A stretch of DNA of 64,000 nucleotides from Dehalococcoidia bacterium (GTDB lineage Bacteria; Chloroflexota; Dehalococcoidia; Bin125), in NCBI GenBank assembly GCA_965203165.1, contig OZ241849.1, positions 2,766,861 to 2,830,860 on the forward strand. Reading direction: 5' to 3'. Both the position numbers and the translations under genes were made by a program. Of this stretch, positions 5,449-47,255 are shown piece after piece. Under the pieces are notes generated by a model. It saw only the letters and a list, made by a program, of their open reading frames with translations, had not been told where the DNA came from and did no database searches. Numbering within the stretch: position 1 is the stretch's first letter; every line of letters starts with the position of its first letter.

Positions 5449-5461
5449 GCGTTGGACCCAG

Positions 5462-11632: not shown

Positions 11633-11676
11633 CTGCTTGCGGGGGTGGGGCGGGAGATGGGGGGGTGTGAATGGGC

Positions 11677-12825
11677 CTAGCGCCGCAGCGGCTGCATTCG
11701 CCGGTATGTCGCCACGCGCCAGAGCCACTCGAAGGGGCCGAAGCGGAAATACTTCAGCCAGACCGGGGACCAGAGCAGCTGCAGCGCCCAGACTGCCAGC
11801 ACGAAGCCCAGAATCGCGGTGCGGGTCAGGTCGGCGTCGCCAAGCAGCGAGCGCAGCACGATCACGCCGATGATTGTCTGCGTCAGGTAGTTGGTCAGCG
11901 CCATTCGGCCCGTCGACTGGAGCGCGTGGTGGATGCGCCGCTGACGGCGCATATTCCAGAGGATGACCAGCGCGATAATTCCCAGCGCGGCGGGAATCGT
12001 GCCGACCGTGTTGGGGATGCCGGTCAGCAGGGCGATTTTCGGATCGAAGTCGTAGATTGCGGCGATTGCGACGCCGAGCGCGGCCAGCGGCAGGCCGACG
12101 CCCAGGCCGTACAGCGCCATCCGGCGGTAGAACTGCGGCGGCTTCTCGCCGCTGAGCACACCCAGCCGGAACAGGGCGACGCCGATCAGCATCATGCCTA
12201 CCGCGCGCGCGAAGAAGTCGAAGATGAAGTAGAGGCCCACGCCGTCCGACGAATCGCCCTCGCTCAGCCAGAGCTCGCCCAGCTGCCGCCCATCCGCATC
12301 GACGCCGGTCTGCGCCGCCCCCGCCACGATCGGAATGATCAGCACCAGCGCGGCGCCCGTCGCCAGCAGCGCCTTGGGCGGCGCGTTGCGCGCGAGGATC
12401 AGAATCGGCGCGGCGACCGCGTAGATCACCAGCACATCGCCGTCCCAGAGCAGCATGTGCAGCACGCCGATGCCCAGCAGCAGCAGGTTCCGCCAGAAGC
12501 TCAGCCAGCCAGCGCTCTTGCCCTTGGCGGCGGCGCGATCCGCGAACAGCACGATCCCGGCCCCGAACAGGATCGAGAAGATGCCCATGAACTTCTGGTC
12601 GATGAAGATTTCGCCGAGGACGCCGATGGTCCAGTCGAGCCAGGTCTCGGTTCCGTCGGCGCTGAGGTTGAAGTAGGCGGCGGGGGGCAGGCCGTAGGAG
12701 ACCGCATTCATCAGCAGGATGCCGAGCACGGCCACGCCGCGCAGCATGTCGAGGTGCGTGATCCGCGCCGTCTCGGCGACCGGGCCGGAGTCCGGCGGCG
12801 GTTCGGAGGTTGTTGGCTCTGGCAT
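11677..12825 (-). CDS. DUF418 (YeiB-like) membrane protein
   Basis: RITHLDMLRGVAVLGILLMN...FSILFGAG N-terminus, multi-TM, and C-terminal GPFEWLWR motif typical of DUF418. Confidence 0.75.
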   Translation of the reverse strand: MPEPTTSEPPPDSGPVAETARITHLDMLRGVAVLGILLMNAVSYGLPPAAYFNLSADGTETWLDWTIGVLGEIFIDQKFMGIFSILFGAGIVLFADRAAAKGKSAGWLSFWRNLLLLGIGVLHMLLWDGDVLVIYAVAAPILILARNAPPKALLATGAALVLIIPIVAGAAQTGVDADGRQLGELWLSEGDSSDGVGLYFIFDFFARAVGMMLIGVALFRLGVLSGEKPPQFYRRMALYGLGVGLPLAALGVAIAAIYDFDPKIALLTGIPNTVGTIPAALGIIALVILWNMRRQRRIHHALQSTGRMALTNYLTQTIIGVIVLRSLLGDADLTRTAILGFVLAVWALQLLWSPVWLKYFRFGPFEWLWRVATYRRMQPLRR

Positions 12826-15944: not shown

Positions 15945-16025
15945 CTTGTTTCGCCCGCGCCTGTAACTCCTGCTCCACTCTCGGCCCTTCCTCTCCGGCT
16001 TCTTCCACCACCCCAGCGCAAATCG

Positions 16026-16825
16026 ATCCGTCATAGCGCGGGAGCAACTCCGTCATACCCGCGGGAGCAACTCCGTCATACCCGCGCACAACAATAGATC
16101 CGTCATACCCGCGCTTGCCGCGGGTATCTCGCCGCGGTGCGCACCAAGTCCGTTCCCGCCGCCCAACCCCCGCGCGCTCCCTTTCCGTCATACCCGCGGG
16201 AGCAACTCCGTCATACCCGCGCACAACATTAGATCCGTCATACCCGCGCTTGCCGCGGGTATCTCGCCGCGGTGCGCACCAAGTCCGTTCCCGCCGCCCA
16301 ACCCCCGCGCGCTCCCTTTCCGTCATACCCGCGCTTGCCGCGGGTATCTCGCCGCGGTGCGCACCAAGTCCGTTCCCGCCGCCCAACCCCCGCGCGCTCC
16401 CTTTCCGTCATACCCGCGCTTGCCGCGGGTATCTCGCCGCGGTGCGCACCAAGTCCGTTCCCGCCGCCCAACCCCCACGCGCTCCCTTTCCGTCATACCC
16501 GCGCTTGCCGCGGGTATCTCGCCGCGGTGCGCACCAAGTCCGTTCCCGCCGCCCAACCCCCGCGCGCTCCCTTTCCGTCATACCCGCGCTTGCCGCGGGT
16601 ATCTCGCCGCGGTGCGCACCAAGTCCGTTCCCGCCGCCCAACCCGCGCGCTCCCTTTCCGTCATACCCCGCACAACATTAGATCCGTCATACCCGCGCTT
16701 GCCGCGGGTATCTCGCCGCGGTGCGCACCAAGTCCGTTCCCGCCGCCCAACCCCCGCGCGCTCCCTTTCCGTCATACCCGCGGGAGCAACTCCGTCATAC
16801 CCGCGCTTGCCGCAGGTATGACGGA
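16026..16825. repeat. Family-1 palindromic repeat array including a regular 85-bp tandem block
   Basis: CCGTCATACCCGCGCTTGCCGCGGGT starts at 16235, 16320, 16405, 16490 and 16575, an exact 85-bp period. Further copies lie near 16100 and 16684, with a degenerate reverse copy at 16803-16825. Confidence 0.95.
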
Positions 16826-16850
16826 TTTTGCGCGAACAGCCGCCCCTCCC

Positions 16851-17795
16851 CTACACCTCCCGCACCAGCTTCTTCAGCGAGTGCAGCTCTTTACCCAGCG
16901 CCTTGCCGCGAATCGTGTTGCAGACCTCCCCCACGTACACATCCCCGCGCGAATCCACCGCAATCCCGTGCGGCGCGATGAACTTGCCCGCCTCCTCGCC
17001 TTCCTCCGCGTCGCCCAGCAGCGCCAGCCGCTCGCCGTCGCGCGAGTAGATGCTCACCCGGTGGCCCAGGCCTGGCGCGTCGGCCATCCCGCCCATCTCG
17101 TTCAGTTCGCCGATGTAGATGTTGCCGTCCGGCGCGAGCGTCAGCCCGTCGGGGCGGTGGATGTTGTTCCACATCGTCACGAACTGCCCCGATTCGCTGA
17201 AGATCTGCACCCGATGGCACTCGCGGTCGGCGATGTAGAGCAGGCCGTCCTCATCAATCGCGATGTTGTGCGGGCGGATGAACTGGCCGGCGTCAATGCC
17301 CGGCGTCCCCCAGGTCTGCTTGTGTTCGCCGTCGGCGTTGAAGCGGTGTACGCACGAGTTGCCGTAGCCGTCGGTCACGAAGATGTCGCCCGTGCGCGGC
17401 GAAACCGCCGCGTGCGTCGGGCGGTTGAACGGCTTGCCGGCCCAGGCCGGCGCGGGGTTGTAGGGATCGCCCAGCGTTTGCAGCAGCTCGCCGTCGGGCG
17501 ACCAGCGGGTGATCGTGTGCGTCCCGTCGTCCGCGCCCCAAACATCGCCCTCCGGCCCGATCCAGATGCCGTGCGAGCGATCGGTGAAGTTCCCCTGCCC
17601 CCACGAGCCGCGCCAGGTTCCGTCGGCGTCGAAGACCATCACCGGGTGCTCGACATTGCGCGTCAGCACGTAGACCGTGTCATCCGCGCCCACGGCGACG
17701 CCGGGCGACTCGACCAGCGTCACCCCATCCGGCAGTTGCTCCCAGATGTCCAGGGCTGTGTAGCTGAAGCCGCCGTCGCTGAGTTGCGCCGTCAT
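16851..17795 (-). CDS. NHL-repeat six-bladed beta-propeller protein (amidating-lyase-like)
   Basis: Repeated motifs P.GIAVD..G.VYV.D / HRVQIF..G throughout 314 aa. Confidence 0.7.
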
Positions 17796-23788: not shown

Positions 23789-24148
23789 CTTTCGCGATAG
23801 CGACACTCCGCTATCCACCCGTTGATCGTATCCGGCGCTCGCTGTCTTGCCAAGAGGCGCGGCCACGGCTGCCGAATACTGAAAGCGCCGGTAGCCGCTT
23901 GGGCACCGGCGCCGATGGCGAAAGTTCACCATCCACTGAAGCGATCATAGCCCGCACCGCCAGGTGCGTTCACGCTTAGCGCGACTCCGCTGCCCCTGCG
24001 CCCTCACACCCGCGCACACCCCTCCTCCCTCCCCGCCTCACCTCTCCCGTCACACCCGCGCGCGCCCCTCTCCCGTCACACCCGCGCCCTGCCTCTCCCG
24101 TCATACCCGCGCGCCGCCTCTCCCATCACACCCGCGCGCCCCCCTCTC

Positions 24149-24336
24149 CCGTCATACCCGCGCTCGCCGCGGGTATCTCGCCGAGTTCTGCACGGAGCCC
24201 CGAGCGCGCCACCCCACATGTTCCGGTGGCGCTCAGACGCCACTTGAGCTGGTGTGACGAGCGGGGGTGCGGGAGGCGGGGACACTACTTGGTGCTCGCC
24301 GCGGCGAGATACCCGCGGCGAGCGCGGGTATGACAG
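24149..24336. mobile_element. MITE-like unit of family 1 (inverted terminal hairpin copies), preceded by half-site iterations from about 24003
   Basis: Left end is CCGTCATACCCGCGCTCGCCGCGGGTATCTCGCCG. Right end is CGGCGAGATACCCGCGGCGAGCGCGGGTATGACAG. The interior resembles those of the 40214..40420 and 53548..53757 elements. Confidence 0.7.
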
Positions 24337-24401
24337 TAGAGGTGGGGCGTGGGTACGGCGGGTTTGTGGGCGGTGGGGTTTGAGGCTTGCGAAAGCAAGC
24401 C

Positions 24402-26280: not shown

Positions 26281-26360
26281 CGCGCCGGGCTGGGAGGTAG
26301 TGCGGCTCGTGGCCGCCCACCGCCCCCGCGATGTCATACATTGTGTGGACAGGGGATGCC

Positions 26361-27188
26361 ATGGAACGACGGCTGAGCATCCGGATGGCAGGGCCTGAGG
26401 TGCCGGAGGGCAAGTTCGCGCTCCGCGACCTCCAGCGCATCGTGCATCCGCTTGAGCAGGCGGTGCGCGCGCTGCTCCCCGCGAGCAAGCCGGACGGCGT
26501 CCAGAAGGGGCGGCCGCGAAAGCCGCAGGTGCGGTTCTTGCTGTCGGCCATTGAGTCCGGATCGGCAGTCGCCAGCGGCGAGATCGATATGGACCTGGAA
26601 CCGACCCTGGAGAATTTTGGGGTCGAACCACTCGTCCAACTCGTTGAGGGGCTTGACGGAACGAGTGCCCGGCTTCCCGAGAACTCGCGCCGGCACCTGG
26701 ACCGAATCGCACAGAACTTGCCGGATGGTGTGGACTACGTCGAGCTGGTTGTGCCCGCCGAAGAGAAGTCGGCCCGCATCTACCGTCGCCGTCCGCCCGA
26801 TCAGCCGACCGGCCGAGCAGAGAAAGCCGCGACGCTTTCGGGGCGCCTGATGTCCATCGACTTCCGCAACGGCTTTGCCCGGCTGGAGGTGCAAGCGGAA
26901 CGGCGGCAAAAGGCGGCGGCGCAGATGGTGCTGCTGCGCTTCCCCGACGAACTCGCGAACGACGTACAGCGTTGCGCTCGCCAACAGGTGAGCGTTCACG
27001 GCATCGCCATGCTGGACGCGGGCGGGGCGATCGAATCGCTCAATGTCCAGCGAATCCACGTCACTCTCGACGATCGACGAGGGCTTTGGGCGCCCAAGCG
27101 GCTGCGTTGGCCGACCCCCGACGAACGGCTGGACAACGTTGACATGCAGGAGTTTCTGCGGACCTCGAGTGAAGAGGACGAGGCATGA
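26361..27188 (+). CDS. Hypothetical protein (275 aa) translationally coupled to the PIN gene
   Basis: ATG 26361 follows AGGGGA (alternative ATG 26331). The stop overlaps the PIN start (ATGA at 27185-27188). No recognisable domain. Confidence 0.55.
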   Translation: MERRLSIRMAGPEVPEGKFALRDLQRIVHPLEQAVRALLPASKPDGVQKGRPRKPQVRFLLSAIESGSAVASGEIDMDLEPTLENFGVEPLVQLVEGLDGTSARLPENSRRHLDRIAQNLPDGVDYVELVVPAEEKSARIYRRRPPDQPTGRAEKAATLSGRLMSIDFRNGFARLEVQAERRQKAAAQMVLLRFPDELANDVQRCARQQVSVHGIAMLDAGGAIESLNVQRIHVTLDDRRGLWAPKRLRWPTPDERLDNVDMQEFLRTSSEEDEA

Positions 27189-27622
27189 TCTCCGGCGCGC
27201 ATGTGGACATCGTGCCCGATACCAATATCGTCATCTCGCTCCTGTCGAATCACCCGGACGAAGTGGAGCGCGCAGAACTCTACCGCCGCCATCTGGAGGG
27301 CAAGGCGGCGGCGATCTCATTCCAGACAGAGGCGGAGTTGCAAGTCCAACGTGAGACACAGCGCTGGGACGAAGCGAAGCTGATGAATCATCTCAGCAAC
27401 TACGAGATTGTGCCGTTTTCCGACGAGCTGCGCGCGTGCTATATCGCGATCCGTTCGGAAGCAGTGCGGCGGAACAGGCGAAACGAGGGACCGCTGGTCA
27501 GTCCAGCCGACGGCTGGATAGCCGCTGCGGCGCTGATGCTGGACTGCCCGCTCGTTACGCACGATCGTAGGCTGTCGCAGAGTCCGTTGATCACAGTGAT
27601 CACCGAGCTGCCCGAAGCGTGA
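27185..27622 (+). CDS. PIN-domain (VapC-like) ribonuclease toxin
   Basis: Acidic residues in PIN order: VPDTNIV, TEAEL, PADGWIAAAA, LVTHDRR. 145 aa. Confidence 0.7.
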   Translation: MISGAHVDIVPDTNIVISLLSNHPDEVERAELYRRHLEGKAAAISFQTEAELQVQRETQRWDEAKLMNHLSNYEIVPFSDELRACYIAIRSEAVRRNRRNEGPLVSPADGWIAAAALMLDCPLVTHDRRLSQSPLITVITELPEA

Positions 27623-27671
27623 CCGCGCGAGTCTTGCGAGGTGGTATCGCAAGCTCGACAGAAAGTACCGG

Positions 27672-27749
27672 TTACCGCTCGTCGTAGGTTTCGAAATAGC
27701 GGGTTTTGACGGCCTTTTGGTTTTCGTAGATCGAGCCCTGACTGGGGGC
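27672..27749 (-). pseudogene. Orphan 3'-end fragment of a phyH-like gene (duplicate of 29154..29231)
   Basis: Encodes ..APSQGSIYENQKAVKTRYFETYDER*, versus ..APSQGSIYENQKAVKNRYFETYEDQ* at the end of CDS 29154..30074. I count 64/78 identical nucleotides. Confidence 0.8.
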
Positions 27750-27804
27750 ATAGACAGCAAACGAATCTGCCGCCACGATCGGCCGCATAAGCATGGGCAG
27801 GCTG

Positions 27805-29079
27805 TTAGCGTGCTGCTGTGTGCGGCAGATTGCGTTTGAGAACATCGCTTTCGGCGGCGGCAACGGCTGCCGACATCAACTCATCCAAGACCGCCTCGAG
27901 CTTGGAGTAGTCGTAGCTGCTGTTGCGCTGTTTGAGCTTCAAAAATCGACGGACGTAGCCTTGTTTATGCTCCAGTTCTCCCTGGTAACGGCGGAGTTTC
28001 TCGTTGTAGCCGGTCCAGCGGACAGTGGGCGTATAGCGCGTATCCCAGTTCAAGTCCAAGTAGCACTCGATGGCCGCAGCTCGTTGGTTGATGTCAGCAC
28101 TGCCTGCGCCTTCTGGTCCGGCCGTCTTGAATGTGCGAAGGGCATCCAGTGTCGGCAACACCATCGTCCGCATGTTATCTGGCATCGACAGCGTCTTGGC
28201 TTCGTCGTGTTTTTCCCAACCCGCAGTATCGTTGTCGTATACGATCACGATATTGTTTTCGATGCCGATGCTCACGAGACCTTGGCAGAATTTGTGGAGG
28301 TTGCCAGTGCCGCTGAACGGATACCCTTGCTCCATATCGACGAATCGGAAGAAATCCGCAACGCCGGGGCGAAGAACTGCGAGTGCGCGTTCGATTACCT
28401 TTGCATCTGAACTACCCTCAGTCACCACGAGAAACGGTCGGGCGCAACCCAAAGCCTCTATGATCCGCTCACGCTCGACCCATCCGTTCTCGACGACATC
28501 AGCGAAGTTCCACGTGACGTCCAGTTGAGCGAGCTGGGCATCTTCAGCCAGAATGCGAAGTATCGCGTATGGCGCGAGATCACCCAAGAACTCGTAGATG
28601 TGGTCAAGCTGAGGCTCGGGAGCCGACAGCGGCTCTGATGTTTGATCGCGGATAATCGCCCGGGCAAGGCTGCGGACGAATTCACCTGGTGGCAGATCCG
28701 GCCACTCAGCAGCAGCTGAAGTGGCATGGGCGAGTCTCGTGAACATCCTCGTTGTGTCGGAATCGGCACCGGACGCCGCTTCGACAAACGAGAGCGATGT
28801 CCAAGCACTATCTGAAGCGGCGGTCAATGCCTGGGCGATCAGGGTAGTTGAGGCTTTTAGGGTAAAACCCAGGAGGTCGAGCCGACGGCTGGTAGCTGAT
28901 AGCGGGCGAACAGCACTCTCGCGCATTTCTGTAATCGGGTTGTCGTTGCAGTCGACATAGTCGTAGCCAGCCAAGCCGATGTCAGACGTTTGGAATGGAA
29001 CTCCGTGGAGTTGGCCGGTTCCGTTTTTCGCGTTGTCGATCAGGTGAGCGCCGAGTTGCAGAGTGATTATAGATCCCAT
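27805..29079 (-). CDS. HEPN/Toprim-associated N-terminal domain plus Toprim (OLD-type, no ATPase) protein
   Basis: ATG 29079 follows GGAGG. N-terminus MGSIITLQLGAHLIDNAKN....FQTSD recalls the HEPN_Toprim_N family. Toprim Glu (FLVVTEGSSDAKV) and DxD (IVIVYDNDTAG) are present, with a possible Rx6H at RMFTRLAH. The region is lower in GC. Confidence 0.5.
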   Translation of the reverse strand: MGSIITLQLGAHLIDNAKNGTGQLHGVPFQTSDIGLAGYDYVDCNDNPITEMRESAVRPLSATSRRLDLLGFTLKASTTLIAQALTAASDSAWTSLSFVEAASGADSDTTRMFTRLAHATSAAAEWPDLPPGEFVRSLARAIIRDQTSEPLSAPEPQLDHIYEFLGDLAPYAILRILAEDAQLAQLDVTWNFADVVENGWVERERIIEALGCARPFLVVTEGSSDAKVIERALAVLRPGVADFFRFVDMEQGYPFSGTGNLHKFCQGLVSIGIENNIVIVYDNDTAGWEKHDEAKTLSMPDNMRTMVLPTLDALRTFKTAGPEGAGSADINQRAAAIECYLDLNWDTRYTPTVRWTGYNEKLRRYQGELEHKQGYVRRFLKLKQRNSSYDYSKLEAVLDELMSAAVAAAESDVLKRNLPHTAAR

Positions 29080-29153
29080 GCCACACCTCCAGACTGCTGT
29101 CCAGGTCAAGTCCGATGACGCGCCTGGACCGACAGCTGCGTTTGCCGCAGTTG

Positions 29154-30074
29154 CTATTGATCCTCGTACGTCTCGAAGTAGCGGTTCTTCACTGCCTTCT
29201 GGTTTTCGTAGATCGAGCCCTGGCTGGGGGCTGGGGGGAGCGGGAGGTAGGGCGGGACTGCGGTTTGGCGGGGCTGCTCTACGTCTTCGCCGGCGCAGAG
29301 CAGGCCCTGGTAGTAGTCGAGGCTCATTTTGCCCAGGCCCTGGATGGGCCAGGCGTCGGCGGCGGCGTAGCCGAAGAGCAGCAGGCGGCGCGGGTTCTCG
29401 GAGCGGTTGAGCGCCGAGCCGTGCATCATCCGCACGTGGTGGAAGGAGACGGAGCCGGCCGGGCCCTCGAGGGCGACCGTGTCGCGCTCCATATCCCAGT
29501 CGAACTCGCTGGGCTCCACCGCGCCGGTGAAATAGCGGCCCTCGGGGTGGTGGTGGTCGTAAATCTTGCCCTTGTGCGAGCCGGGCACGACCAGCAGCGG
29601 GCCGTTCTGCTCGTAGCAGTCGTCGAGCAGGATGCCGGCGGCGAGCAGGTCGTCGTTGGTGTGGGGGTAGAAGGGCCAGTCCTGGTGCCACTCGACGGGC
29701 GCGCCGTACTGCGCCTCTTTCATGTTGAGCTTGTCGTTCTGCAGCCGCACATTGGGACCGATCAGGGCGGAGACGACTTCCATCAGGACGGGGTGCTGGG
29801 CGAGCTCGCGGAAGAAGGGCCAGTGGGCGTGGGGCGACTTGAGCCGCCGCACGCGGGGGTCGTCGGGCGTGTGCGAGTCCTCGAGGTCGTAGCGCGCGTC
29901 GTGGTCGGTCAGGCCGGCGGCCTCGGCGACGATCCGGTCGGTCTCGTCGCGCAGCGCTTGCAGCGTGTCGTCGGGCAGCAGGCTGGGGATCAGCAGGTAG
30001 CCGTTCTCGTGGTAGAACTCAACCTGCTCGGGGGTAACGAGCGGTTTGACGGCGGTGGCGGTCGTCGTGGTCAT
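29154..30074 (-). CDS. Phytanoyl-CoA dioxygenase (PhyH) family Fe(II)/2OG oxygenase
   Basis: TPEQVEFYHENGYLLIPSLL, VEWHQDWPFYPH and SVSFHHVRMMHGS motifs. Confidence 0.85.
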   Translation of the reverse strand: MTTTTATAVKPLVTPEQVEFYHENGYLLIPSLLPDDTLQALRDETDRIVAEAAGLTDHDARYDLEDSHTPDDPRVRRLKSPHAHWPFFRELAQHPVLMEVVSALIGPNVRLQNDKLNMKEAQYGAPVEWHQDWPFYPHTNDDLLAAGILLDDCYEQNGPLLVVPGSHKGKIYDHHHPEGRYFTGAVEPSEFDWDMERDTVALEGPAGSVSFHHVRMMHGSALNRSENPRRLLLFGYAAADAWPIQGLGKMSLDYYQGLLCAGEDVEQPRQTAVPPYLPLPPAPSQGSIYENQKAVKNRYFETYEDQ

Positions 30075-30153
30075 TGGGCGGCTCCTGCTCCTCAGGCGGC
30101 TGCTCGGGTTGCAATGCGCGCAGTGTAGGCGATGGCGCGGCTAGACTGCGCGG

Positions 30154-31797
30154 GTGACCAAGCCAGTCTATGAGCATGCAATTCGCTGGGAGTCGCGCCG
30201 TTCGCCGGTGCTCTCGACGCGCGGCGCGGTGGCGGCGAGCCAGCCGCTGGCGACGCTGGCCGGGGTGCGGATGCTGCAGGCGGGCGGCAACGCGGCCGAC
30301 GCGGCGGTGGCCGCGGCCGCGGCGCTGGCGGTGGTCGAGCCCAACTCGACGGGGATCGGCGGCGACTGCTTCTGCCTCTTCTACCGCGTTTCGGACGGGG
30401 CGGTGGAGGCGATCAACGGGAGTGGGCGCAGCCCGGCCGCGCTGACACTGGAGCGAGCGGGCGGCGCGGAGGGTTTCGAGCGGCAGGGCGCGCACGCGGT
30501 GACCGCGCCGGGCACGATCGCCGGCTGGTCGGACACGCTGAGCCGCTTCGGGCGGATGACGCTCACCGAGGCACTCGGGCCGGCGATCGAGCTGGCCGAG
30601 CAGGGCTTCCCGGTCACGCCGGTGATCAGCCGCGGCTGGGCGAGCCAGGAGCAGCTGCTGCGCGAAAAGGGGCCGGCGGGCGGCGATCTGCTGCTCGGCG
30701 AGCGCGCGCCGCGCGCGGGCGAGGTGTGGCGCAATCCGCGCATCGCGCGGGTGCTGCGCGCCGTCGCCGAAGGCGGTCCCGACGCCTTCTACCGGGGCGC
30801 GCCGGCGCGGGCGATCGTCGAGGCGCTGGAGCTGCACGGCGGCTGCATGACGTTGGACGATCTGGCCGCGCACTGCTCGACATTCGAGCCGCCGCTCTCG
30901 ACGACCTACCGCGGCCACACGGTCTACGAGTGCCCGCCCAACGGCCAGGGAATCACGGCGCTGATCGCGCTGAACATCCTCGAGGGGATTGACATCGCGG
31001 GGACGGCGCCGCGCACGGTCGAGGCGCTGCATCCGACGATCGAGGCGATTCGGCTGGCGTTCGCCGACGCGCGGGCTTACGTGGCCGATCCGGCGCGCGC
31101 CGCGGTGCCGGTCGAGGGGCTGCTGAGCAAGGCCTACGCGGCGGAGCGGCGCGGGTTAATCCAGTCGGACGCGGCGATCGATCTGGCAAGGGCCGGGCAG
31201 CCGTCCGCTCTGCCCGGCGGGTCGGACACGGTCTATCTCTGCGCGGTCGACGGCGAGGGCAACGCCTGCTCGTTCATCAACAGCAACTACGAGGGCTTCG
31301 GCAGCTGCATCGTGCCCCGCGATTGCGGCTTCAGCTTGCAAAACCGCGGCGCGGGCTTCGCGCTGGAGCCGGGCCACCCCAACGCGCTGGAGGGCGGCAA
31401 GCGGCCCTATCACACGATCATGCCGGCGATGCTGACGCGGCCCGACGGCTCGCTGTTCGCCGCGTTCGGGGTGATGGGCGGCTGGAATCAGCCGCAGGGG
31501 CACACGCAGGTCGCGATCAATCTGATCGATCGGGGGATGGATCCGCAGGCGGCGATCGACGAGCCGCGCTTTTCGATCCAGACCGACCCACCCAACGGCG
31601 ACATCTGGGTTGAGGACGGCATCCCGGTAGAGGTGATCAGCGCGCTGGCGCAGCTGGGGCATCCGGTGCGGCCGGCGTCGGGCGCGCTGCGCAGCGGCGC
31701 GGTGGGCAAGGGGCAGATCATCGCGCGGGATCCGCAGACAGGCGTGCTCTGGGCGGGCTCGGACCCGCGCGCCGACGGCTGCGCAATCGGGCTGTAG
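30154..31797 (+). CDS. ggt: Gamma-glutamyltransferase
   Basis: AVAASQPLAT..GVRMLQAGGNAADAAVA, autoprocessing Thr context GGSDTVYLCAVD, and MGGWNQPQGH. Confidence 0.9.
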   Translation: MTKPVYEHAIRWESRRSPVLSTRGAVAASQPLATLAGVRMLQAGGNAADAAVAAAAALAVVEPNSTGIGGDCFCLFYRVSDGAVEAINGSGRSPAALTLERAGGAEGFERQGAHAVTAPGTIAGWSDTLSRFGRMTLTEALGPAIELAEQGFPVTPVISRGWASQEQLLREKGPAGGDLLLGERAPRAGEVWRNPRIARVLRAVAEGGPDAFYRGAPARAIVEALELHGGCMTLDDLAAHCSTFEPPLSTTYRGHTVYECPPNGQGITALIALNILEGIDIAGTAPRTVEALHPTIEAIRLAFADARAYVADPARAAVPVEGLLSKAYAAERRGLIQSDAAIDLARAGQPSALPGGSDTVYLCAVDGEGNACSFINSNYEGFGSCIVPRDCGFSLQNRGAGFALEPGHPNALEGGKRPYHTIMPAMLTRPDGSLFAAFGVMGGWNQPQGHTQVAINLIDRGMDPQAAIDEPRFSIQTDPPNGDIWVEDGIPVEVISALAQLGHPVRPASGALRSGAVGKGQIIARDPQTGVLWAGSDPRADGCAIGL

Positions 31798-31810
31798 AAG
31801 GGCGAGCAAG

Positions 31811-32776
31811 TTGGCTAGCAGAATCGAACGCATTCGCGCGATCTGGCCCAATGAGGAACGCGACTTCACACCGTGGTTGGCCCAGAACCTGCGCGTACTG
31901 AGCGATGCCCTCGGTCTCCAACTCGAACGGCCGCGATGCGAGGTGCCAGTCGGCCTCTATTCGCTAGACGTGTTCGCGGTTGACGCTCTCAGCGACGATG
32001 CAGTGGCGATCGAGAACCAGATCGACGAGTCCAACCACAGCCACCTGGGTCAACTTCTCACGTATGCCTCGGGACTCGGCGCTCAAAAAGCGATCTGGAT
32101 CGCATCTGAGTTCTCGCCTGAGCATCTTCGCGCTCTAGACGATCTCAACCGGACAGCCTCCGATGGCCGCGAGTTCTTCGCAGTCGTCCTTGACGTCCCG
32201 GCACGCGCCACACCCAAGAACCCAGCGGTCAAGCTCACTGTCGTCTTGACTCCAGATCGGAAGAAGACTCCGCCCGGCAAGGCACCAGCTCGCAATCGCG
32301 GGGGCAAGTACGACCGATTCGCCCGAGATGTCGCGCCACTGTTGGGATCTCAGGGATTCACCCCAGCCAACTCTGCACGTGTTCCGGCCAAGGCTCACGC
32401 CTCCGAGCGCTTCTTCTTCGGCGGCTATCGCGATGATGCCGTCTCCTACAATCTGTCCGTCGAAGCTGGAGAGATTCGCGCCTATCTCTTCCACCACGGC
32501 GGACGCGCGTCGGAACGTCGCGCATTGCACGACCGCTTCAAGCGTGACGAGCTGCGCATCAAGGAAGCGCTTGCCAACGCAGGGCAGCAGAGTGGTTTTC
32601 GGATCAAGCACATCAACCCGCAAGGTATTTTCCGCTGGTTGATCGGAGTCAGTGTGCCGGGATCGATCGACACGCCCGCGGATGCTGAGGCGGCGCTCAA
32701 TTGGCTCACCAGCTCGATCCCCACCCTGCGGCGAGTCCTTGAGCCGCAGCTGCGCGAATTCCTCAACGGCGACTAA
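31811..32776 (+). CDS. PD-(D/E)xK-like nuclease N-domain plus DUF4268-like C-domain protein
   Basis: E.DFTPWLAQNL..L...LGL.L......V.VG.YSLDVFA.D...DDAVAIENQIDESNHSHLGQLLTYASGL.AQKAIWIA is the pattern typical of this family. Confidence 0.55.
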   Translation: MASRIERIRAIWPNEERDFTPWLAQNLRVLSDALGLQLERPRCEVPVGLYSLDVFAVDALSDDAVAIENQIDESNHSHLGQLLTYASGLGAQKAIWIASEFSPEHLRALDDLNRTASDGREFFAVVLDVPARATPKNPAVKLTVVLTPDRKKTPPGKAPARNRGGKYDRFARDVAPLLGSQGFTPANSARVPAKAHASERFFFGGYRDDAVSYNLSVEAGEIRAYLFHHGGRASERRALHDRFKRDELRIKEALANAGQQSGFRIKHINPQGIFRWLIGVSVPGSIDTPADAEAALNWLTSSIPTLRRVLEPQLREFLNGD

Positions 32777-32780
32777 TCCG

Positions 32781-32905
32781 CGGCATCCAGTCCGCTGCGC
32801 AGCGGCGCGGTGGGGAAAGGGCAGATCATCGCGCGAGATCCGCAGACGGGCGTGCTCTGGGCGGGCTCAGACCCACGCGCCGACGGCTGCGCGATCGGGC
32901 TGTAG
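32781..32905 (+). pseudogene. Orphan 3'-end fragment of ggt (duplicate of 31687..31797)
   Basis: 32795..32905 differs from 31687..31797 at 7 of 111 nt. All 7 are synonymous, and both encode LRSGAVGKGQIIARDPQTGVLWAGSDPRADGCAIGL*. Confidence 0.9.
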
Positions 32906-32939
32906 GCTGACCCAAGGCGAACGACGGCGGAGGCCGGCG

Positions 32940-33146
32940 ATGAGGCGAACATTCACAGCGAGCGTGGCGCAAGAGGGCGAGTGGTACGTCGCGCAGGCCC
33001 TGGAAGTCGATGTCGCGAGCCAGGGGGAGTCGGTGGATGAGGCGCTGGCGAACCTGCGCGAGGCGATTGAGCTCTACTTCGAGCCGCCGCGGGCGACCGA
33101 CGCCCCTGAGTTGCACCAGATCGAGGTAGAGGTTGCCGCCGGCTAG
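32940..33146 (+). CDS. HicB-like (UPF0150) antitoxin-fold small protein, no adjacent HicA
   Basis: FTASVAQEGEWYVAQALEVDVASQGESVDEALANLREAIELYFE. ATG 32940 follows GGAGG. Confidence 0.6.
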   Translation: MRRTFTASVAQEGEWYVAQALEVDVASQGESVDEALANLREAIELYFEPPRATDAPELHQIEVEVAAG

Positions 33147-33160
33147 GGCGCTTTTCTTTT

Positions 33161-33263
33161 CAGATGGACGGGGTGAAACCTTTCAATTGGACGGTGGGTA
33201 AGTTTTCAAATGGACGTCGGTCAACCTTTCAATTGGACGGGGTTGGGTTTACGATTGGACGAT
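33161..33263 (+). repeat. Five iteron-like direct repeats (22-23 bp period) abutting the AAA ATPase start codon
   Basis: CAGATGGACGGG at 33161, CAATTGGACGGT at 33184, CAAATGGACGTC at 33206, CAATTGGACGGG at 33229 and CGATTGGACGAT at 33252. The last contains ATG 33262. Confidence 0.85.
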
Positions 33264-34596
33264 GGCCGACGCCGCGCTCTACCCCCGCTACGCCGAACTG
33301 CGCCTGGCCGAGGCGCTGGAGGAGTCGCCGATTGTGCTGATCCAGGGGCCGCGGCAGTGCGGCAAGACCACGCTGGCGCAGATCGTGGGCTCGCCGCGCG
33401 GCCTGACGGCGGGTGCGAACCCTCCCGCGGGGGAGGGCGCCTATTCCTACGTGACCTTCGACGACGACATCGCGCGCAGCGGCGCGGAGACCGACCCGAT
33501 GGGATTCATCGCGGGCCTGCCGGAACGCGCGGCACTGGACGAGGTGCAGCGCGTGCCGGGCATCTTCACCGCGCTGAAGCTGGCGGTGGACCGCGACCGC
33601 AGGCCAGGGCGCTTCCTGCTGACCGGCTCGACCAACGTGCTGCAGACGCCGAACTTGGCGGACTCGCTCGCCGGGCGGATGGAGACCGTGCGGTTGCACC
33701 CGCTGGCGCAGTGCGAGCTCGCCGATCGTTCCGATCGTCCTGAGGCGCGGCTGGAGGACGGGCGCTTCATCGGCTTCCTCGATGCGCTGTTCGAGGGCGG
33801 CTTCGAGACGCGGCGCAGCGAACCGCTGGGCGCGGAGTTGCACGAGCGGATCGTCGACGGCGGCTATCCGGCGGCGCTGGCGCGGCGCGCGGGGCGGCGG
33901 CGCGCGGTCTGGTACCGCGACTACGTGGAGGCGCAGATGCAGCGCGATGTGCGCGATATGTCGCGGATTCGGACGCTCGAAGCGCTGCCCCGGCTGATGC
34001 GTCTGGCGGCGGTGCAGACGGCGACGCTGCTCAACGTCTCGGATCTGGCGCGCTCGTTCGAGCTCAGTCTGCCGACCGTGCGCAGCTATCTCGAGCTGCT
34101 GGAGCGGGTCTTTCTGCTCGAGCGGCTGCCGCCCTGGCACAGCAACCGGCTGAGTCGGCTGATTAAGACGCCGAAGCTGCACATCGGCGACACGGGGCTG
34201 GCCTGCGCGCTGATGGGGCTCAACGCGGCCGGGCTGGCGCGCGACCCGCAGCGGCGCGGCGCGCTGCTCGAGACGTTCGTCTTTCAGGAGCTGCGCCGCC
34301 AGGCCGCCTGGTACGACGCGCCGCTCGATTTCTTCCACTTCCGCGACAAGGACAAGGCGGAGGTGGACATCGTGATCGAGCGGGGCGGGATCCAAGTGGC
34401 GGGCGTGGAGGTCAAGGCGGCGAGCACGGTTTCGGAGGGCGATTTCCGCGGCCTGCGTCGGCTGCGCGAGGCGAGCGGCGCGCAGTTCGCCGCCGGCGTG
34501 GTGCTGCACGACGGTGAGATCTCGACGAGCTTCGGCGACGGTCTCTACGCGGTGCCCATTCGGATGCTGTGGGAGGCGGCGGGGATTGAGCGCTGA
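33262..34596 (+). CDS. AAA-family ATPase with DUF4143 C-terminal domain
   Basis: Walker A GPRQCGKTT. AAA_14-like LDEVQRVP. C-terminal YFRDKDKAEVDIVIE is the pattern of the DUF4143 (PD-(D/E)xK-like) family. Confidence 0.75.
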   Translation: MADAALYPRYAELRLAEALEESPIVLIQGPRQCGKTTLAQIVGSPRGLTAGANPPAGEGAYSYVTFDDDIARSGAETDPMGFIAGLPERAALDEVQRVPGIFTALKLAVDRDRRPGRFLLTGSTNVLQTPNLADSLAGRMETVRLHPLAQCELADRSDRPEARLEDGRFIGFLDALFEGGFETRRSEPLGAELHERIVDGGYPAALARRAGRRRAVWYRDYVEAQMQRDVRDMSRIRTLEALPRLMRLAAVQTATLLNVSDLARSFELSLPTVRSYLELLERVFLLERLPPWHSNRLSRLIKTPKLHIGDTGLACALMGLNAAGLARDPQRRGALLETFVFQELRRQAAWYDAPLDFFHFRDKDKAEVDIVIERGGIQVAGVEVKAASTVSEGDFRGLRRLREASGAQFAAGVVLHDGEISTSFGDGLYAVPIRMLWEAAGIER

Positions 34597-34653
34597 TGCG
34601 GCCTTGCCATTCGACGGATCAGGTCCGCTCGCGCCGGCGGGCGGCGGCCGCTG

Positions 34654-35427
34654 CTACGCGGCTGCGCCCGCCAGCCGCGGGATGTCGTCGGAAGCGCGCT
34701 CCCGGAAGTCGTTCAACGCGGGGTATTGGCGGTCCGCGTTCCGCATCAGCATGAGCGTCTCTTTCGAACCCAGCTCCTCGATGTCCTCGTGGATGACCAG
34801 GCTGATGAACGGCAGGCCAGCCTTTTGAAATTCCAGCAGCGCGATGGTGACGTTCTTGGCTTTGTCGTTGCCTCGCACGCCGAAGACGTAGAAGTCTCTG
34901 TCGTTATGCGTCAGTTGCCAGTCGACGCTGATCGGATAGTCGGGCAGCGGAGCGACATCCTGCGTCGGGCTGAACACGGCGAGATCGCCTTGAACGTACT
35001 CGGTGAGATCGTCGTAGAACGCGCTGCGCACCACTTCCCGACTCCAATAGCTCATACTCGACACTTTCTGCACGCAGCTGGCGAACTGGAGGATGCTCGC
35101 GTAGAGCGAGTCGATGGGCGCATCGAGGTAGAGGTTGCCATTGTCGTTCTGGACGCCGCTGTTAATCAGGATGCTCTCGAGGATGCCGCGGCGGGTCGGA
35201 GAATTGATCTCGAAGCTGTACGAGAGGCGCATCAAGGCCATCCCGAAATCGCAGATGCGGACCTGCTCAGTGCCGCGCGGGCTCTGCTGCAAGTAGATGT
35301 CCACCATGTCACCGTCTTCGTGCGAGATCGGCGCAATGAGTTGGAGAGCGCCCGGCCGACGCTCGTAGAGGTCGAAACCGCTGTTGAGCGATTCACGGAG
35401 CGCTGCCCTGATCGCGTCATTGTTCAT
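34654..35427 (-). CDS. DUF1828/DUF1829-like protein
   Basis: 257 aa in a lower-GC segment next to the tRNA. N-terminal ..HEDGDMVDIYL... and C-terminal pattern recalled from DUF1828/1829 proteins. Low certainty. Confidence 0.4.
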   Translation of the reverse strand: MNNDAIRAALRESLNSGFDLYERRPGALQLIAPISHEDGDMVDIYLQQSPRGTEQVRICDFGMALMRLSYSFEINSPTRRGILESILINSGVQNDNGNLYLDAPIDSLYASILQFASCVQKVSSMSYWSREVVRSAFYDDLTEYVQGDLAVFSPTQDVAPLPDYPISVDWQLTHNDRDFYVFGVRGNDKAKNVTIALLEFQKAGLPFISLVIHEDIEELGSKETLMLMRNADRQYPALNDFRERASDDIPRLAGAAA

Positions 35428-36846: not shown

Positions 36847-36894
36847 GGGTTGCACGACGGTCCCGCCCCTGCCACCCGCACGCTCTCTTCGGCC

Positions 36895-37303
36895 ACTCCC
36901 GCGCAAAAATTAGATCCGTCATACCCGCGCTCCCTCCACCACACCCGCGCTTGCTCTCTCGTCAAACCCGCGCTCGCTCTCTCGTCATACCCGCGCTCCC
37001 TCTCCCGTCATACCCGCGCTCCATCTCTCGTCAAACCCGCGCTTCCTCTCCCGTCATCCCCGCGCTCGCTCTCCCGTCATACCCGCGCTCCCTCCGCCGT
37101 CATCCCCGCGCTCGCTCTCCCGTCATACCCGCGCTCGCCGCGGGTATCTCGCCGCACTGAGCACCAAGCCCCACCCCCGCCTCCTCGCCCTCGCCAAGCA
37201 TCCCTCCCGCACCCCGCACAGACCTCCCACACACCTCCGTCGTTCCGCGCAGGGCTCCGTGCAGCACTCGGCGAGATGCCCGCGGCGAGCGCGGGTTTGG
37301 GGG
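36895..37303. repeat. Family-1 half-site iterations plus MITE-like inverted pair 37120..37303
   Basis: Half-sites CCGTCA(T/A)ACCCGCGCT recur about every 30 bp. A full hairpin lies at 37120-37150 and a degenerate reverse copy at 37270-37303. Confidence 0.85.
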
Positions 37304-40077: not shown

Positions 40078-40117
40078 CGCCGCCCTCCACGCCTCCGATG
40101 GTATCCCAGCTCGCAAC

Positions 40118-40447
40118 AACTCCGTCACACCCGCGCCCCCACCTCCGTCATACCCGCGCCTCCACCTCCGTCACACCCGCGCTCCACCTCCGCCATACCC
40201 GCGCGAGCAAGATCCGTCATACCCGCGCTCGCCGCGGGTATCTCGGCGAGTTCTGCACGGAGCCGCGCCTCCGCCGTTTCTGCGCGGACACTCGCGCCGC
40301 GCAACGTTCCGCCCCGGATGTCCGGCGGTGCTCGGATGGCGCTTGCTCAGAAGTGGCGGGCGGGGACGGTGCTTGGTGATCAGCGCGGCGAGATACCCGC
40401 GGCGAGCGCGGGTATGACGGATCTTGCTCTCGCGGGTATGGCGGCGG
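40118..40447. repeat. Family-1 repeats including complete MITE-like unit 40214..40420
   Basis: Left end CCGTCATACCCGCGCTCGCCGCGGGTATCTCGGCG. Right end CGGCGAGATACCCGCGGCGAGCGCGGGTATGACGG. 207 bp. Confidence 0.85.
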
Positions 40448-45057: not shown

Positions 45058-45208
45058 GGTTGACGGTGGCAAGTTTTGGCAAGCGTTGGCGAGGCTGGGG
45101 TTGCCGGCGGGGAGGGCGGGTTGGCGTCGTTGCGGGGAGAGGGGCATGGTGATGGCACTCCTGTTCTGGTAAGTGTAGCAGGAGTTGGAGGAAGTGGGGG
45201 GTGTGCGG

Positions 45209-45357
45209 TGGTTCCTGCCTGCGCAGGAATGACGAGGGGGAGCGCAGGAATGACGGGAGGGGGCGCGGGGATGACGGAGGGGGCGCGGTTCCTGCCTGCG
45301 CAGGAATGACGAGAGGGGGTGCGCAGGAATGACGGTTGGGGGCGTGGGTATGACGGA
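45209..45357. repeat. Family-2 palindromic repeats (GGTTCCTGCCTGCGCAGGAATGACGG plus half-sites)
   Basis: Full hairpins lie near 45209 and 45287. Half-sites GCGCAGGAATGACGG / GCGCGGGGATGACGG lie between them. Confidence 0.9.
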
Positions 45358-45446
45358 GGGGCGGGGCTGGTGTAGAGTGAGGGGCGTGACGCATGGTGCC
45401 GACTTCATGACTGCCGGCCAGCGCGCTTGCCGCGCGCTGGCGGCGC

Positions 45447-47252: not shown

Positions 47253-47255
47253 GCG

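Follow-up and report, generated by a model that had tools for sequence, protein, structure and literature searches.

The window (the whole 64,000-nt stretch of Dehalococcoidia DNA analysed here) contains an intact phyH gene, a displaced second copy of its 3′ end and one cargo gene lying between the two, and a comparable arrangement is found at the neighboring ggt gene. The features are listed below, where host-type and foreign-type refer to comparison with the related loci named in each line (L-numbers):

29154..30074, minus strand: phyH, phytanoyl-CoA dioxygenase family, 306 aa, intact, a housekeeping gene and the conserved "landing" gene (Pfam PF05721, E = 2.8e-39)
29154..29231, minus strand: intact copy of the 78-nt repeat (attL-like), nt 1-60 host-type and nt 63-75 foreign-type, ending ...YEDQ-stop (comparison with L091 and L001)
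29080..29153, minus strand: cargo leader, from the phyH stop to the cargo ATG, with a hairpin CTGCG-GCAAA-CGCAG just past the stop (read from the sequence)
27805..29079, minus strand: cargo gene, 424-aa "HEPN/Toprim-associated" family protein (Pfam PF18871)
27750..27804, minus strand: cargo 3′ flank, of which the GATTCGTTTGCT part recurs 3′ of the 70%-identical cargo allele in L082 (spacer alignment)
27672..27749, minus strand: displaced copy of the 78-nt repeat (attR-like), nt 1-60 foreign-type and nt 63-75 host-type, ending ...YDER-stop (comparison with L091 and L082)
27623..27671, no strand: spacer separating the displaced tail from the convergent PIN gene, also conserved in L084 and L080
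26331..27622, plus strand: resident two-gene module outside the cassette, a 285-aa protein without family match and a PIN-domain protein at 27185-27622 (Pfam PIN, E = 1.7e-11)
31685..31797, plus strand: intact ggt 3′ end, repeat copy 1, host-type throughout (equal to L091 at 5 of 6 copy-distinguishing sites)
31811..32776, plus strand: ggt cargo, 321 aa, candidate defence family PDC-S11 (PADLOC PDLC04911, E = 1.5e-53; no Pfam match)
32793..32905, plus strand: displaced ggt tail, foreign-type throughout, followed by native downstream sequence and a DUF7387 gene (L091 alignment)

The terminal 78 nt of phyH recur as a direct repeat (27672-27749 / 29154-29231, minus strand) in which 64 of 78 bases are identical in an ungapped alignment, exactly the coordinates and counts that an earlier note on this DNA had given for a diverged copy of the gene end. 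An independent repeat search recovered 27679-27749 / 29161-29231, or 71 nt at 86%. The displaced copy still codes for the tail peptide and a stop, also as claimed previously (APSQGSIYENQKAVKTRYFETYDER-stop compared with ...KNRYFETYEDQ-stop in the intact gene), and 9 of the 13 codons that differ between the copies are synonymous. An identity of at least 64/78 has a probability of 1e-22 per pair and ~5e-13 across all pairs in the window, which excludes a chance origin of the repeat. The same combination of phyH repeat and cargo also occurs in L080 and in L084, two independent public assemblies (L084 being a short-read contig that could be a strain chimera), and thus it is not an assembly artefact of the window. 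The 5′ end of contig L080 also carries an inverted phyH-tail fragment with host-type bases, which looks like a fold-back assembly artefact and was set aside.

The GC content of the stretch between the copies (27750-29153) is 0.568, compared with 0.676 for phyH and 0.685 for the window, and the GC3 values of cargo and phyH are 0.63 and 0.93. The low GC extends leftwards to ~27050, across the PIN gene. Both the drop in GC and the presence of a single real gene between the copies had been noticed before and are borne out. The sole Pfam match of the encoded protein is HEPN_Toprim_N (84.4 bits with a cut-off of 25, residues 1-76), and behind this N-terminal domain come a helical middle part, predicted with low confidence, and an alpha/beta domain at the C-terminus. 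Homologues are numerous (752 found), with PF18871 in all 120 of those listed. In a 41-sequence alignment, a Toprim-type E...DxD signature is invariant, consisting of E221 (VTEGSSD) and D282-N283-D284, and the invariant columns contain no R...H pair with the HEPN Rx4-6H spacing. The cargo looks like the Toprim version of the PF18871 family. Foldseek with the AF2 model (pLDDT 79.6) returned weak matches only, to the Toprim-bearing Top2 core, GajA and OLD (E > 0.1). There was no significant match to the PDB, by sequence or by Foldseek with the model, and no match in NCBIfam or PADLOC. An exact-sequence look-up of the protein returned no record, a scan of the JGI metagenomes found no relatives (the lineage is absent from that collection) and a literature search for "HEPN Toprim" found no paper. 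Distant homologues sit in defence islands. Taken from family, motifs and neighborhoods, the most likely role of the cargo is that of a Toprim-type nuclease for anti-phage defence.

At the borders of the cassette, the cargo-side sequence begins CAACTGCGGCAAACGCAG after the phyH stop TAG, and the cargo 3′ flank terminates ...GATTCGTTTGCTGTCTAT next to the displaced tail. The leader is kept in L084 and L080 and absent in L001 and L091. The native phyH tail reads ...TACGACGAGCGGTA(A/G), and the PIN-side sequence beyond the tail is CCGGTACTTTCTGTCGAGC. The spacer at 27623-27671 does not align to L091, whose homology with the window begins at 27612. A promoter and terminator scan of 27500-29400 gave nothing informative. 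The two genes of the resident module overlap by 4 nt, and the module adjoins ADH in L004, L044, L050, L080-L086 and L091 whether or not the cassette is present.

Two relatives of the same species, L001 and L091 (~96.5% nucleotide identity in the flanks), have a single phyH tail each. This tail equals the intact window copy at nt 9-60 (7/7 informative sites in L091) and the displaced copy at nt 63-75 (5/5 informative sites), and the window copies are therefore reciprocal host/foreign chimeras. Such a small number of runs of host and foreign sites along the repeat has a probability of 0.01. Relative to L091, the intact copy has one difference in nt 1-60 and five in nt 61-78 (P = 3e-4), with the same partition relative to L001, and the displaced copy has eight differences in nt 1-60, where ~2 are expected (P = 1.2e-3), and one in nt 61-78. 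The switch maps to nt 60-63 in both copies. GC3 of nt 1-60 is 0.70 in the displaced copy and 0.90 in the intact copy, and these 60 nt of the displaced copy are closest to the L082 tail (56/60). The differing segments are foreign rather than decayed. When the donor tail was rebuilt from the two foreign segments (APSQGSIYENQKAVKTRYFETYEDQ-stop), it was exactly the tail of L084, found later. A reciprocal chimera of this type is what a single crossover of the chromosome with a unit of phyH tail plus cargo would leave behind. The L080 displaced copy carries a 1-nt deletion, which marks it as a decaying relic, and in L084, unlike in the window, nt 39-47 are element-type in both phyH copies. The window, L080 and L084 may all derive from one integration, in which case the tract differences could reflect later gene conversion and not the integration itself.

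The ggt duplication in the window spans 31673-31797 / 32781-32905 (125 nt at 90%), and overall the ggt repeat measures 113-125 nt at about 90-94%. Both duplications are real, and the phyH case stands, as the earlier note had proposed, as a second and separate instance of cargo between duplicated gene ends. The PDC-S11 cargo begins 14 nt past the ggt stop. Comparison with relatives, suggested as a check, revealed empty ggt sites in L091, which belongs to the same species (98% amino acid and 96.5% nucleotide identity), and in L082. L091 has just one ggt tail, to which both window copies can be aligned (the matches of window 35242..32793 and 31797..29161 share 113 nt of L091 sequence), and the sequence past the displaced copy is the sequence past the L091 ggt stop. 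Counted from the stop, the crossover lies in the interval from -12 to +1. Tracts in L001 differ from those in the window, both L001 copies being element-type at -42..-30. On these alignments, the ggt/PDC-S11 cassette follows the same logic as the phyH cassette. At phyH, L001 and L091 do have a single tail but it is followed by other cargo, and none of the relatives was found to have the exact empty site, in which the PIN module would come immediately after phyH.

The gene order of ggt and phyH, a variable interval and then ADH is kept in ~45 Dehalococcoidia loci. The host bacteria of these loci are sponge-associated. Most relatives have cargo at the same spot and no duplication, including L081, L082 and L085, where phyH, the HEPN/Toprim gene and the PIN gene follow one another in a donor-type arrangement, and a fully empty interval from phyH to ADH occurs only in the more distant relatives L018, L021 and L024. 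The earlier note had called for a genome survey of further duplicated gene ends. Relatives do have additional cases, L007 with a duplicated phyH tail and a CAP12-like TIR gene and L039 with a ggt tail and a BRCT-like ORF (256 nt at 97%); ggt tails with PDC-S11 are present in L001, L002 and L006. The window and 83 loci were surveyed for unique direct repeats of 45-450 nt with a spacing of 0.25-8 kb, and in 1.6 Mb of related sequence the pattern is confined to the phyH and ggt ends. The other candidates of the survey were REP-like hairpin elements or paralogous domains and not gene-end duplications. The logic seen at ggt may also apply to L007, but with L008 as host proxy its informative sites are mixed, thus no crossover can be mapped there. 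The idea that the displaced copies of the window and L007 start at the same codon was dropped, as the L007 copy may reach ~25 nt further upstream with indels.

The reading we prefer, with a probability of roughly 0.5, is Campbell-type homologous integration, at a defence hotspot, of a single-gene defence cassette that carried a foreign phyH tail. The element would be a 1.48-kb cassette in which the HEPN/Toprim-family gene is preceded by its leader and followed by the terminal 78 nt of a foreign phyH. The starting point would be a related Dehalococcoidia lineage with the cargo already directly behind phyH, and the unit of phyH tail and cargo would then have become separable, presumably as a circle or a tandem repeat. 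After its entry into the window lineage, it would have been integrated by one reciprocal crossover in the stretch from nt 60 to nt 63 of the 78-nt phyH tail, probably through the general recombination system of the host. The predicted product is a phyH with host nt 1-60 and foreign nt 61-78, the cargo, a second tail with foreign nt 1-60 and host nt 61-78, and then the host downstream sequence. phyH stays intact because the incoming piece brings a complete end and stop codon, and selection keeps phyH and ggt intact. The duplicated tail would serve as homology handle and remain as scar, making a recombinase of the cassette's own unnecessary, and later recombination between the tail copies could either homogenise them or delete the cassette. 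The cargo gene thus probably arrived on DNA with its own copy of the gene end, and ordinary homologous recombination would then have inserted it. Genomes with the same cassette are not alike in their host/foreign exchange tracts (L084 at phyH, L001 at ggt), which fits homologous exchange or gene conversion. In Bacillus subtilis, Campbell integration reportedly needed no more than about 70 bp of homology in the 1992 work of Khasanov and coworkers, and all the repeat lengths observed (about 68-78, 113-125 and 256 nt) reach roughly that threshold.

A linear donor could lead to a similar product. Here DNA taken up from a cell with a repeat-flanked or tandemly amplified cassette would supply two tails that invade the single tail of the recipient independently (ends-out or break-induced repair), or one end would be joined by homology and the other illegitimately (homology-facilitated illegitimate recombination). 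No circle is necessary, most species with long-target-duplication insertions are naturally competent (Furuta et al., PMC2853133), and the element-type bases shared by both copies in L084 and in L001 look as if they came from independent crossovers (x not equal to y). Nevertheless, both window copies switch within the same 3-nt interval, as a single reciprocal crossover would produce and two independent ones only by coincidence, and a purely illegitimate right-hand join would give an all-host displaced copy, which is not observed. We consider a linear donor unlikely.

Just as improbable is site-specific integration by a recombinase acting in trans, with the cassette being a cis-mobilisable remnant that has att sites in the phyH tail. 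Direct repeats at a gene 3′ end with the gene restored are reminiscent of classical integrative elements, and gene-end-specific integration is known in Dehalococcoidia (PMC3146451). Both window crossovers are also located no more than ~18 nt upstream of the stop, which could hint at a preferred site (n = 2). On the other hand, no recombinase or transposase was found in any cassette, with four different cargos, in agreement with the earlier statement that none is left behind. By Pfam, integrases are absent from the phyH cassette and from the genes at 24.4-33.1 kb of the window, and two targeted scans found none in 20 first-neighbor genes of relatives. None was present among the best 25 of 89 Pfam families from 149 ORFs of the variable intervals. 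The phyH and ggt repeats differ in length and sequence and have no common core: alignment of their junctions, which had been suggested as a search for a crossover motif, yielded no shared 8-mer and one 7-mer, with 0.55 expected by chance. No terminal inverted repeats of at least 12 nt were found at the cassette ends, and neither repeat, folded as single-stranded DNA on either strand, had excess structure (z from -0.9 to +0.5). A site-specific enzyme that crosses over where the repeat ends on its 3′ side would have no use for the 60-113 nt that the element carries upstream. The exchange tracts are not constant from genome to genome, which may reflect later conversion, and the intact ggt copy is host-type, the reverse of tRNA-type integrations in which the element supplies the gene end. 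The earlier idea of a recurrent mechanism that targets gene 3′ ends therefore stands as far as recurrence is concerned, with other cargo in relatives (L007, L039, L001/L002/L006), but dedicated recognition is unsupported given the absence of motif, fold or inverted repeats and the variable lengths and tracts.

Still less probable is a true "insertion with long target duplication", in which a staggered or double-strand break in the recipient phyH tail is filled in and both copies are initially host sequence that then diverges, with the cargo nuclease possibly provoking the break. Insertions of this kind are published for R-M genes, with repeats of 46-420 bp, some over gene 3′ ends (PMC2853133). 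The cargo has a nuclease-type Toprim signature, and the L039 ggt copies are compatible with in-place duplication. However, host duplication with neutral decay cannot produce a foreign segment in each window copy and mainly synonymous changes, and the four unrelated cargo types (including TIR and PDC-S11) make cargo-specific cutting unlikely. A local relic, either an in-place tandem duplication partly deleted or the decayed end of a downstream second phyH paralogue (the alternative that the earlier note named against itself), is very improbable: tandem duplications are common and a deletion could leave a tail fragment, but none of ~50 relatives has a second phyH, the copies are chimeric, with complementary switch points and mostly synonymous differences, and the cargo is compositionally foreign.

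Among known systems, the closest phenomenon is the insertion of R-M genes with long target duplication, and the locus is a variant of it. R-M genes were found inserted without transposase or integrase, and the direct repeats around them, tens to hundreds of bp long, occur only once at the empty site of a related genome (PMC2853133). The mechanism was left unresolved there; an "insert, amplify through repeats, release" cycle was proposed (PMC2853133). Kobayashi's group suggested for R-M genes that the nuclease provokes the target break. Furuta et al. (2010; PMC2853133) required flanking repeats >30 bp that are single at a related empty site, no mobility gene, an insert <20 kb, R-M genes and copies derived from the target. 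At our locus, the repeats exceed 30 bp, a related genome has a single repeat (empty ggt in L091; phyH with other cargo) and the insert is a 1.4-kb stretch with one gene and no mobility gene, but the content is not R-M (HEPN/Toprim-family and PDC-S11 cargo) and the copies are not both target-derived. Defence cargo, the lack of a mobility gene and direct repeats, some at a gene 3′ end, are common to both, while the cargo here is a single gene (HEPN/Toprim family, PDC-S11 or CAP12-like TIR) and the host belongs to Chloroflexota (Dehalococcoidia). Because each repeat copy has one foreign segment, the "duplication" here would be the product of crossover with a cargo-borne homologue and not a copy of the target.

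Integrative elements and CIMEs, including the Dehalococcoides ssrA islands (PMC3146451), likewise have direct repeats at gene 3′ ends, a replacement end that keeps the gene intact and successive cargo at one site. Our cassettes differ in having no cis integrase or shared core, longer and variable repeats, a host-derived intact end at ggt and variable tracts. The product predicted for Campbell integration of suicide plasmids is identical, with the homology duplicated around the insert and reciprocal chimeras that switch at one point, but that case concerns engineered circles in the laboratory, whereas here it would be a natural route of gene flow. In rhs/cdiA orphan toxin tips and in the minimal mobile elements of Neisseria, new cargo is acquired through recombination within a conserved gene or flank. 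These systems share with our locus old gene ends displaced downstream as relics and the lack of a dedicated recombinase. In Rhs/CDI, the exchanged gene end is the variable payload, whereas here the peptides encoded by the two ends are almost alike and a gene of its own serves as payload. Minimal mobile elements recombine through a homologous flank on either side, and no duplicated sequence remains. Integron cassettes are also single promoter-less genes in series at a fixed place with no recombinase within, but here there is no attC-like fold (|z| < 1) and no nearby integron integrase, and the repeat is coding sequence of the neighbor. As regards transposons and IS elements, the phyH cassette has no transposase family match and no terminal inverted repeats, and its repeat is 78 nt long.

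How lone defence genes spread without mobility genes is an old question, raised for R-M genes in 2000-2010. The locus offers unusually clean natural evidence on this question, with same-species genomes that have or lack a cassette, donor-type arrangements elsewhere and repeat copies diverged enough for their halves to be assigned. The reciprocal chimera favors one homologous crossover, with a gene end brought along by the cargo, over a duplication of the target. It is conceivable, though doubtful, that single-gene defence systems in these bacteria, and perhaps more widely, spread as self-sufficient, recombinase-free "handle-and-cargo" units, each a gene with a captured 3′ end of a conserved host gene, that cycle between integrated, repeat-flanked and released circular or amplified forms by host homologous recombination alone and form a general class of mobile element. 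If true, this class would explain both the puzzle of R-M "long target duplication" and the filling of defence hotspots. If the pattern is general, short duplicated gene ends would be a computational marker of recent defence-gene acquisition, and defence hotspots would be sites where a conserved gene end acts as a common recombination handle.

The earlier note described a low-GC single gene bracketed by a duplicated phyH end, and every detail of that description was borne out. The 3′-terminal 78 nt of phyH (nt 1-78 of the repeat) align ungapped with a displaced copy at 64/78 positions, and a direct-repeat search independently recovered a 71-nt core at 86% identity. The chance probability of the match is 1e-22 per pair and ~5e-13 over all window pairs.

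Features of the phyH cassette
29154-29231, minus strand, intact copy, terminating a PhyH-family gene of 306 aa (Pfam E 2.8e-39)
27805-29079, minus strand, cargo, the sole gene between the phyH-tail copies
27672-27749, minus strand, displaced copy

The displaced copy still translates to APSQGSIYENQKAVKTRYFETYDER followed by a stop, and 9 of the 13 codons that differ between the copies are synonymous. GC is 0.568 in the 1.4 kb between the copies, 0.676 in phyH and 0.685 in the window, with GC3 at 0.63 in the cargo versus 0.93 in phyH. Inverted repeats are absent from the cassette ends. The same architecture occurs at a related public locus, L080, with a cargo 90% identical in amino acids; its displaced tail has a 1-nt deletion and additional substitutions, and is a relic without selective maintenance. 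L080 also starts (positions 1-50, at the beginning of a metagenome contig) with an inverted copy of tail nt 1-50 fused to the cassette leader, which most likely arose through fold-back during assembly of the repeat.

The only Pfam match of the 424-aa cargo is PF18871 (HEPN/Toprim N-terminal domain 1; 84 bits versus a cut-off of 25), and its 752 homologues, spread across many phyla, are labelled "HEPN/Toprim-associated domain-containing protein" by naming sources. Toprim domains, as reportedly described by Aravind et al. in 1998, have a Glu + DxD pattern. E221 (within VTEGSSD) and D282-N-D284, invariant in an alignment of 41 sequences, match this pattern. The AlphaFold model (pLDDT 79.6, pTM 0.81) is good except in the helical middle region and has no significant neighbour among PDB structures; weak matches include the Toprim-bearing topoisomerase II core, Gabija GajA and OLD. 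Distant homologues adjoin Gabija-like OLD+UvrD genes, SNF2/PLD genes and nucleotidyltransferases, and no PADLOC model matches the cargo. We regard it as a putative nuclease of the Toprim type, belonging to a candidate defence system.

The origin of the two tails can be approached through two related loci, L001 and L091, whose flanks are ~96.5% identical to each other and to the window, so that all three represent one species; the cargo is different in each. Both have a single phyH tail (...KNRYFETYDER-stop). With L091 as same-species reference, we scored the informative sites, meaning those that distinguish the intact from the displaced tail. L091 agrees with the intact copy at nt 9, 33, 42, 45, 47, 54 and 60 (7/7) and with the displaced copy at nt 63, 69, 72, 74 and 75 (5/5), the sole exception to this host/foreign partition being stop-codon base 78; so few runs have P=0.01. 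Against a flank divergence of 3.5%, differences number 8 in nt 1-60 of the displaced copy (P=1.2e-3) and 5 in nt 61-78 of the intact one (P=3e-4), with 1 apiece in the complementary segments (intact nt 1-60, displaced nt 61-78). Since GC3 is lower in the foreign segments and most of their differences sit at third codon positions, we infer that they come from a functional phyH of another lineage and not from in-place decay. Each copy is a reciprocal host/foreign chimera, in the order phyH (host nt 1-60, foreign nt 61-78), leader, cargo, displaced tail (foreign nt 1-60, host nt 61-78), host spacer and PIN gene. A single reciprocal crossover at nt 60-63 would yield exactly this structure if the partner linked the cargo to a complete foreign phyH tail.

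Cargo homologues of 70-72% identity occupy the same place at L081, L082/L083 and L085/L086, in the order phyH, cargo, PIN module, ADH and without a duplicated tail. No tail comes closer to the foreign 1-60 segment than that of the L082 phyH (...KTRYFKTFEDQ-stop; 56/60). Joining both foreign segments predicted the donor tail APSQGSIYENQKAVKTRYFETYEDQ-stop, and this very peptide then turned up at the intact phyH end in L084, where the cargo is 97% identical in nucleotides to that of the window. The source was likely a lineage with the cargo simply behind phyH. The mobile unit would consist of tail plus cargo and would join the recipient by one reciprocal homologous crossover inside the phyH tail, at nt 60-63; as the simplest guess, the 3′ flank of the cargo would first have been joined to the tail start via tandem duplication of the unit, followed by pop-out.

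A phyH protein search of public genomes returned 79 loci, of which ~50 are Dehalococcoidia/Chloroflexota MAGs, many of them from marine-sponge metagenomes judging by names. These ~50 share the order ggt and phyH (divergent), a variable interval and zinc alcohol dehydrogenase (ADH), with an interval from ~0.13 kb (L018, L021, L024) up to 7 kb. The interval is a defence-rich hotspot.

First gene(s) behind the phyH stop
L001, 10929-13958: 1009-aa Type ISP-like R-M enzyme (N6_Mtase + Type_ISP_C), starting 8 nt past the stop
L091, 1361-3174 (locus coordinates): MT-A70 + N6_N4 methyltransferases and a 149-aa ORF
L005: AAA_21/AAA_15 ATPase
L041: Uma2 nuclease
L007, L014, L039: CAP12-like TIR protein
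Window and L080-L086: HEPN/Toprim-family gene
Some other loci: fn3 and M23 proteins

The empty-site comparison proposed for phyH was answered in part: L001 and L091, the closest relatives of the window, have the single tail, but their slot holds other cargo, R-M-type genes without tail duplication. At 26331-27622 the PIN-domain gene shares 4 nt with the gene for a 285-aa protein that matches no family. This two-gene module (GC 0.61-0.65, below the genome average) is conserved beside ADH in many relatives and may be a defence or toxin-antitoxin pair of atypical make-up.

The window holds further repeats. A high-copy intergenic REP/BIME-like family lies at ~5440-6100, 7340-8050, 11100-11710, 16010-16850, 23980-24350, 36870-37300 and 40100-40310, and on the reverse strand at ~45170-45360, 47220-47830 and 50050-50200, as arrays of 23-26-nt units (CCGTCA(T/C)ACCCGCGC...) with a terminal hairpin module (CATACCCGCGCTTGCCGCGGGTATCTCGCCGCG...GCACCAAGCCCC); an inverted pair (24139-24352, 37104-37299) brackets the whole 12.7-kb ADH-phyH-ggt region. 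Tandem repeats with periods of 57 nt (at least 8 copies) and 85 nt (~10 copies, some 99% identical) occur among 6535-7161, 16014-16852 and 45895-47230, and a coding repeat of ~111 nt at 45.9-47.2 kb has a motif (...HTCALRSSGAI.CWG...) that looks RCC1-like. Blocks of 185 + 300 nt repeated 2850 nt apart (59200-59844 and 62050-62694; 82-86% identity) probably reflect adjacent paralogous genes.

As the earlier note proposed, the duplicated-gene-end architecture is recurrent, at phyH and ggt in the window and at L007 and L039 in relatives; in 1.6 Mb of related sequence surveyed, gene-end duplications were found only at phyH and ggt.

Other cassettes between duplicated gene ends
Window, 31673-32905: ggt / PDC-S11 cassette, duplicated ggt end of 113-125 nt
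L007, 10904-11876: CAP12/Pycsar-type (CAP12-like) TIR gene between phyH tails
L039, 7490-8471: BRCT-like ORF between ggt tails, 256 nt at 97% identity

The ggt duplication is real (31673-31797 and 32781-32905; 125 nt, 90% by repeat search), and PADLOC matches its cargo to the candidate PDC-S11 (E 1.5e-53). L091 provides the same-species empty site, with a single tail and ggt followed directly by DUF7387; this tail aligns to both window copies, the alignments overlapping by 113 nt. The intact copy is host-type at 5/6 informative sites, whereas the divergent, displaced copy continues into native downstream sequence, so that the crossover maps to the interval from -12 to +1 relative to the stop. 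L081 has ggt then PDC-S11 without duplication, L082 is also empty (DUF7387 gene directly behind ggt), and L002 and L006 have a 70%-identical PDC-S11 allele in the same duplicated-ggt-end architecture. Directly past the window's DUF7387 gene, 33157-33240 holds three to four 23-nt tandem units (TTTTCAaaTGGACGG...) with GC far below the surroundings. At L007 the intact tail ends ...EDKQKS-stop, as in L037 and L010, and the displaced tail ...EDRKG-stop, as in L008, L009, L012 and L024; informative sites, judged by eye with L008 as host proxy, were mixed and no crossover was placed. Homologues (67% identical) of its TIR gene lie behind phyH without duplication in L014 and L039. The 170-aa L039 ORF is BRCT / DEDDh-exonuclease-C-terminal-like and runs on the strand opposite to ggt.

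We give a probability of about 0.5 to homologous, recombinase-free integration of a unit of gene end plus defence gene at the hotspot. Repeat length varies by event (~68-78, 113-125 and 256 nt), and exchange tracts differ among genomes sharing a cassette: element-type bases occupy nt 39-47 in both phyH-tail copies of L084 (a short-read contig) and -42..-30 in both ggt copies of L001. The crossover motif suggested as common to the phyH and ggt junctions did not emerge (no common 8-mer; one 7-mer versus 0.55 expected), the repeats showed no excess of single-strand structure, and the four unrelated cargos include no recombinase, in agreement with the earlier note. With a crossover at the repeat's 3′ end, a site-specific enzyme would have no use for the 60-113 nt of upstream tail that the unit carries, but homologous pairing requires just such a stretch. 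Together with the lack of inverted repeats, these features favour general homologous recombination, and the special mechanism targeting gene 3′ ends that had been proposed is unsupported. Several points count against a firm verdict: both mapped crossovers fall within the final ~18 nt; the window, L080 and L084 may go back to a single event with later gene conversion; L084 is a short-read contig; a recombinase might lie elsewhere in the genome; and a circular or tandem intermediate is so far hypothetical. A linear-DNA version of homologous integration is unlikely. We likewise doubt a trans-acting site-specific recombinase encoded elsewhere in the genome; the clustering of both crossovers would suit it, but the absence of a shared junction motif and the variable repeat lengths and exchange tracts argue against it.

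Insertion with long target duplication, the published pattern for R-M genes, comprises defence genes without a mobility gene, flanked by 46-420 bp direct repeats that are single-copy at the empty site and in some cases overlap a gene 3′ end, mostly in naturally competent species; its authors proposed that DNA breakage plays a part and that the genes cycle through insertion, repeat-mediated amplification and release (PMC2853133). The present cassette has the structural features of that pattern. However, its cargo is not R-M, and its repeat does not simply double the target sequence, each copy being part foreign, which makes true target duplication improbable here. A local relic can be set aside as highly improbable given the third-position changes and lower GC3 of the foreign segments, and 27672-27749 does not behave as the decayed tail of a deleted second phyH. 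The cassette also resembles CIMEs (integrase-less, att-flanked elements) and the gene-end-specific islands of Dehalococcoides (PMC3146451), but it contains no integrase, and no core is shared by the phyH and ggt sites. Mechanistically, its architecture is of the kind that Campbell (laboratory single-crossover) integration yields. Its interest lies mainly in the diverged repeats, which allow the recombination product to be read directly.
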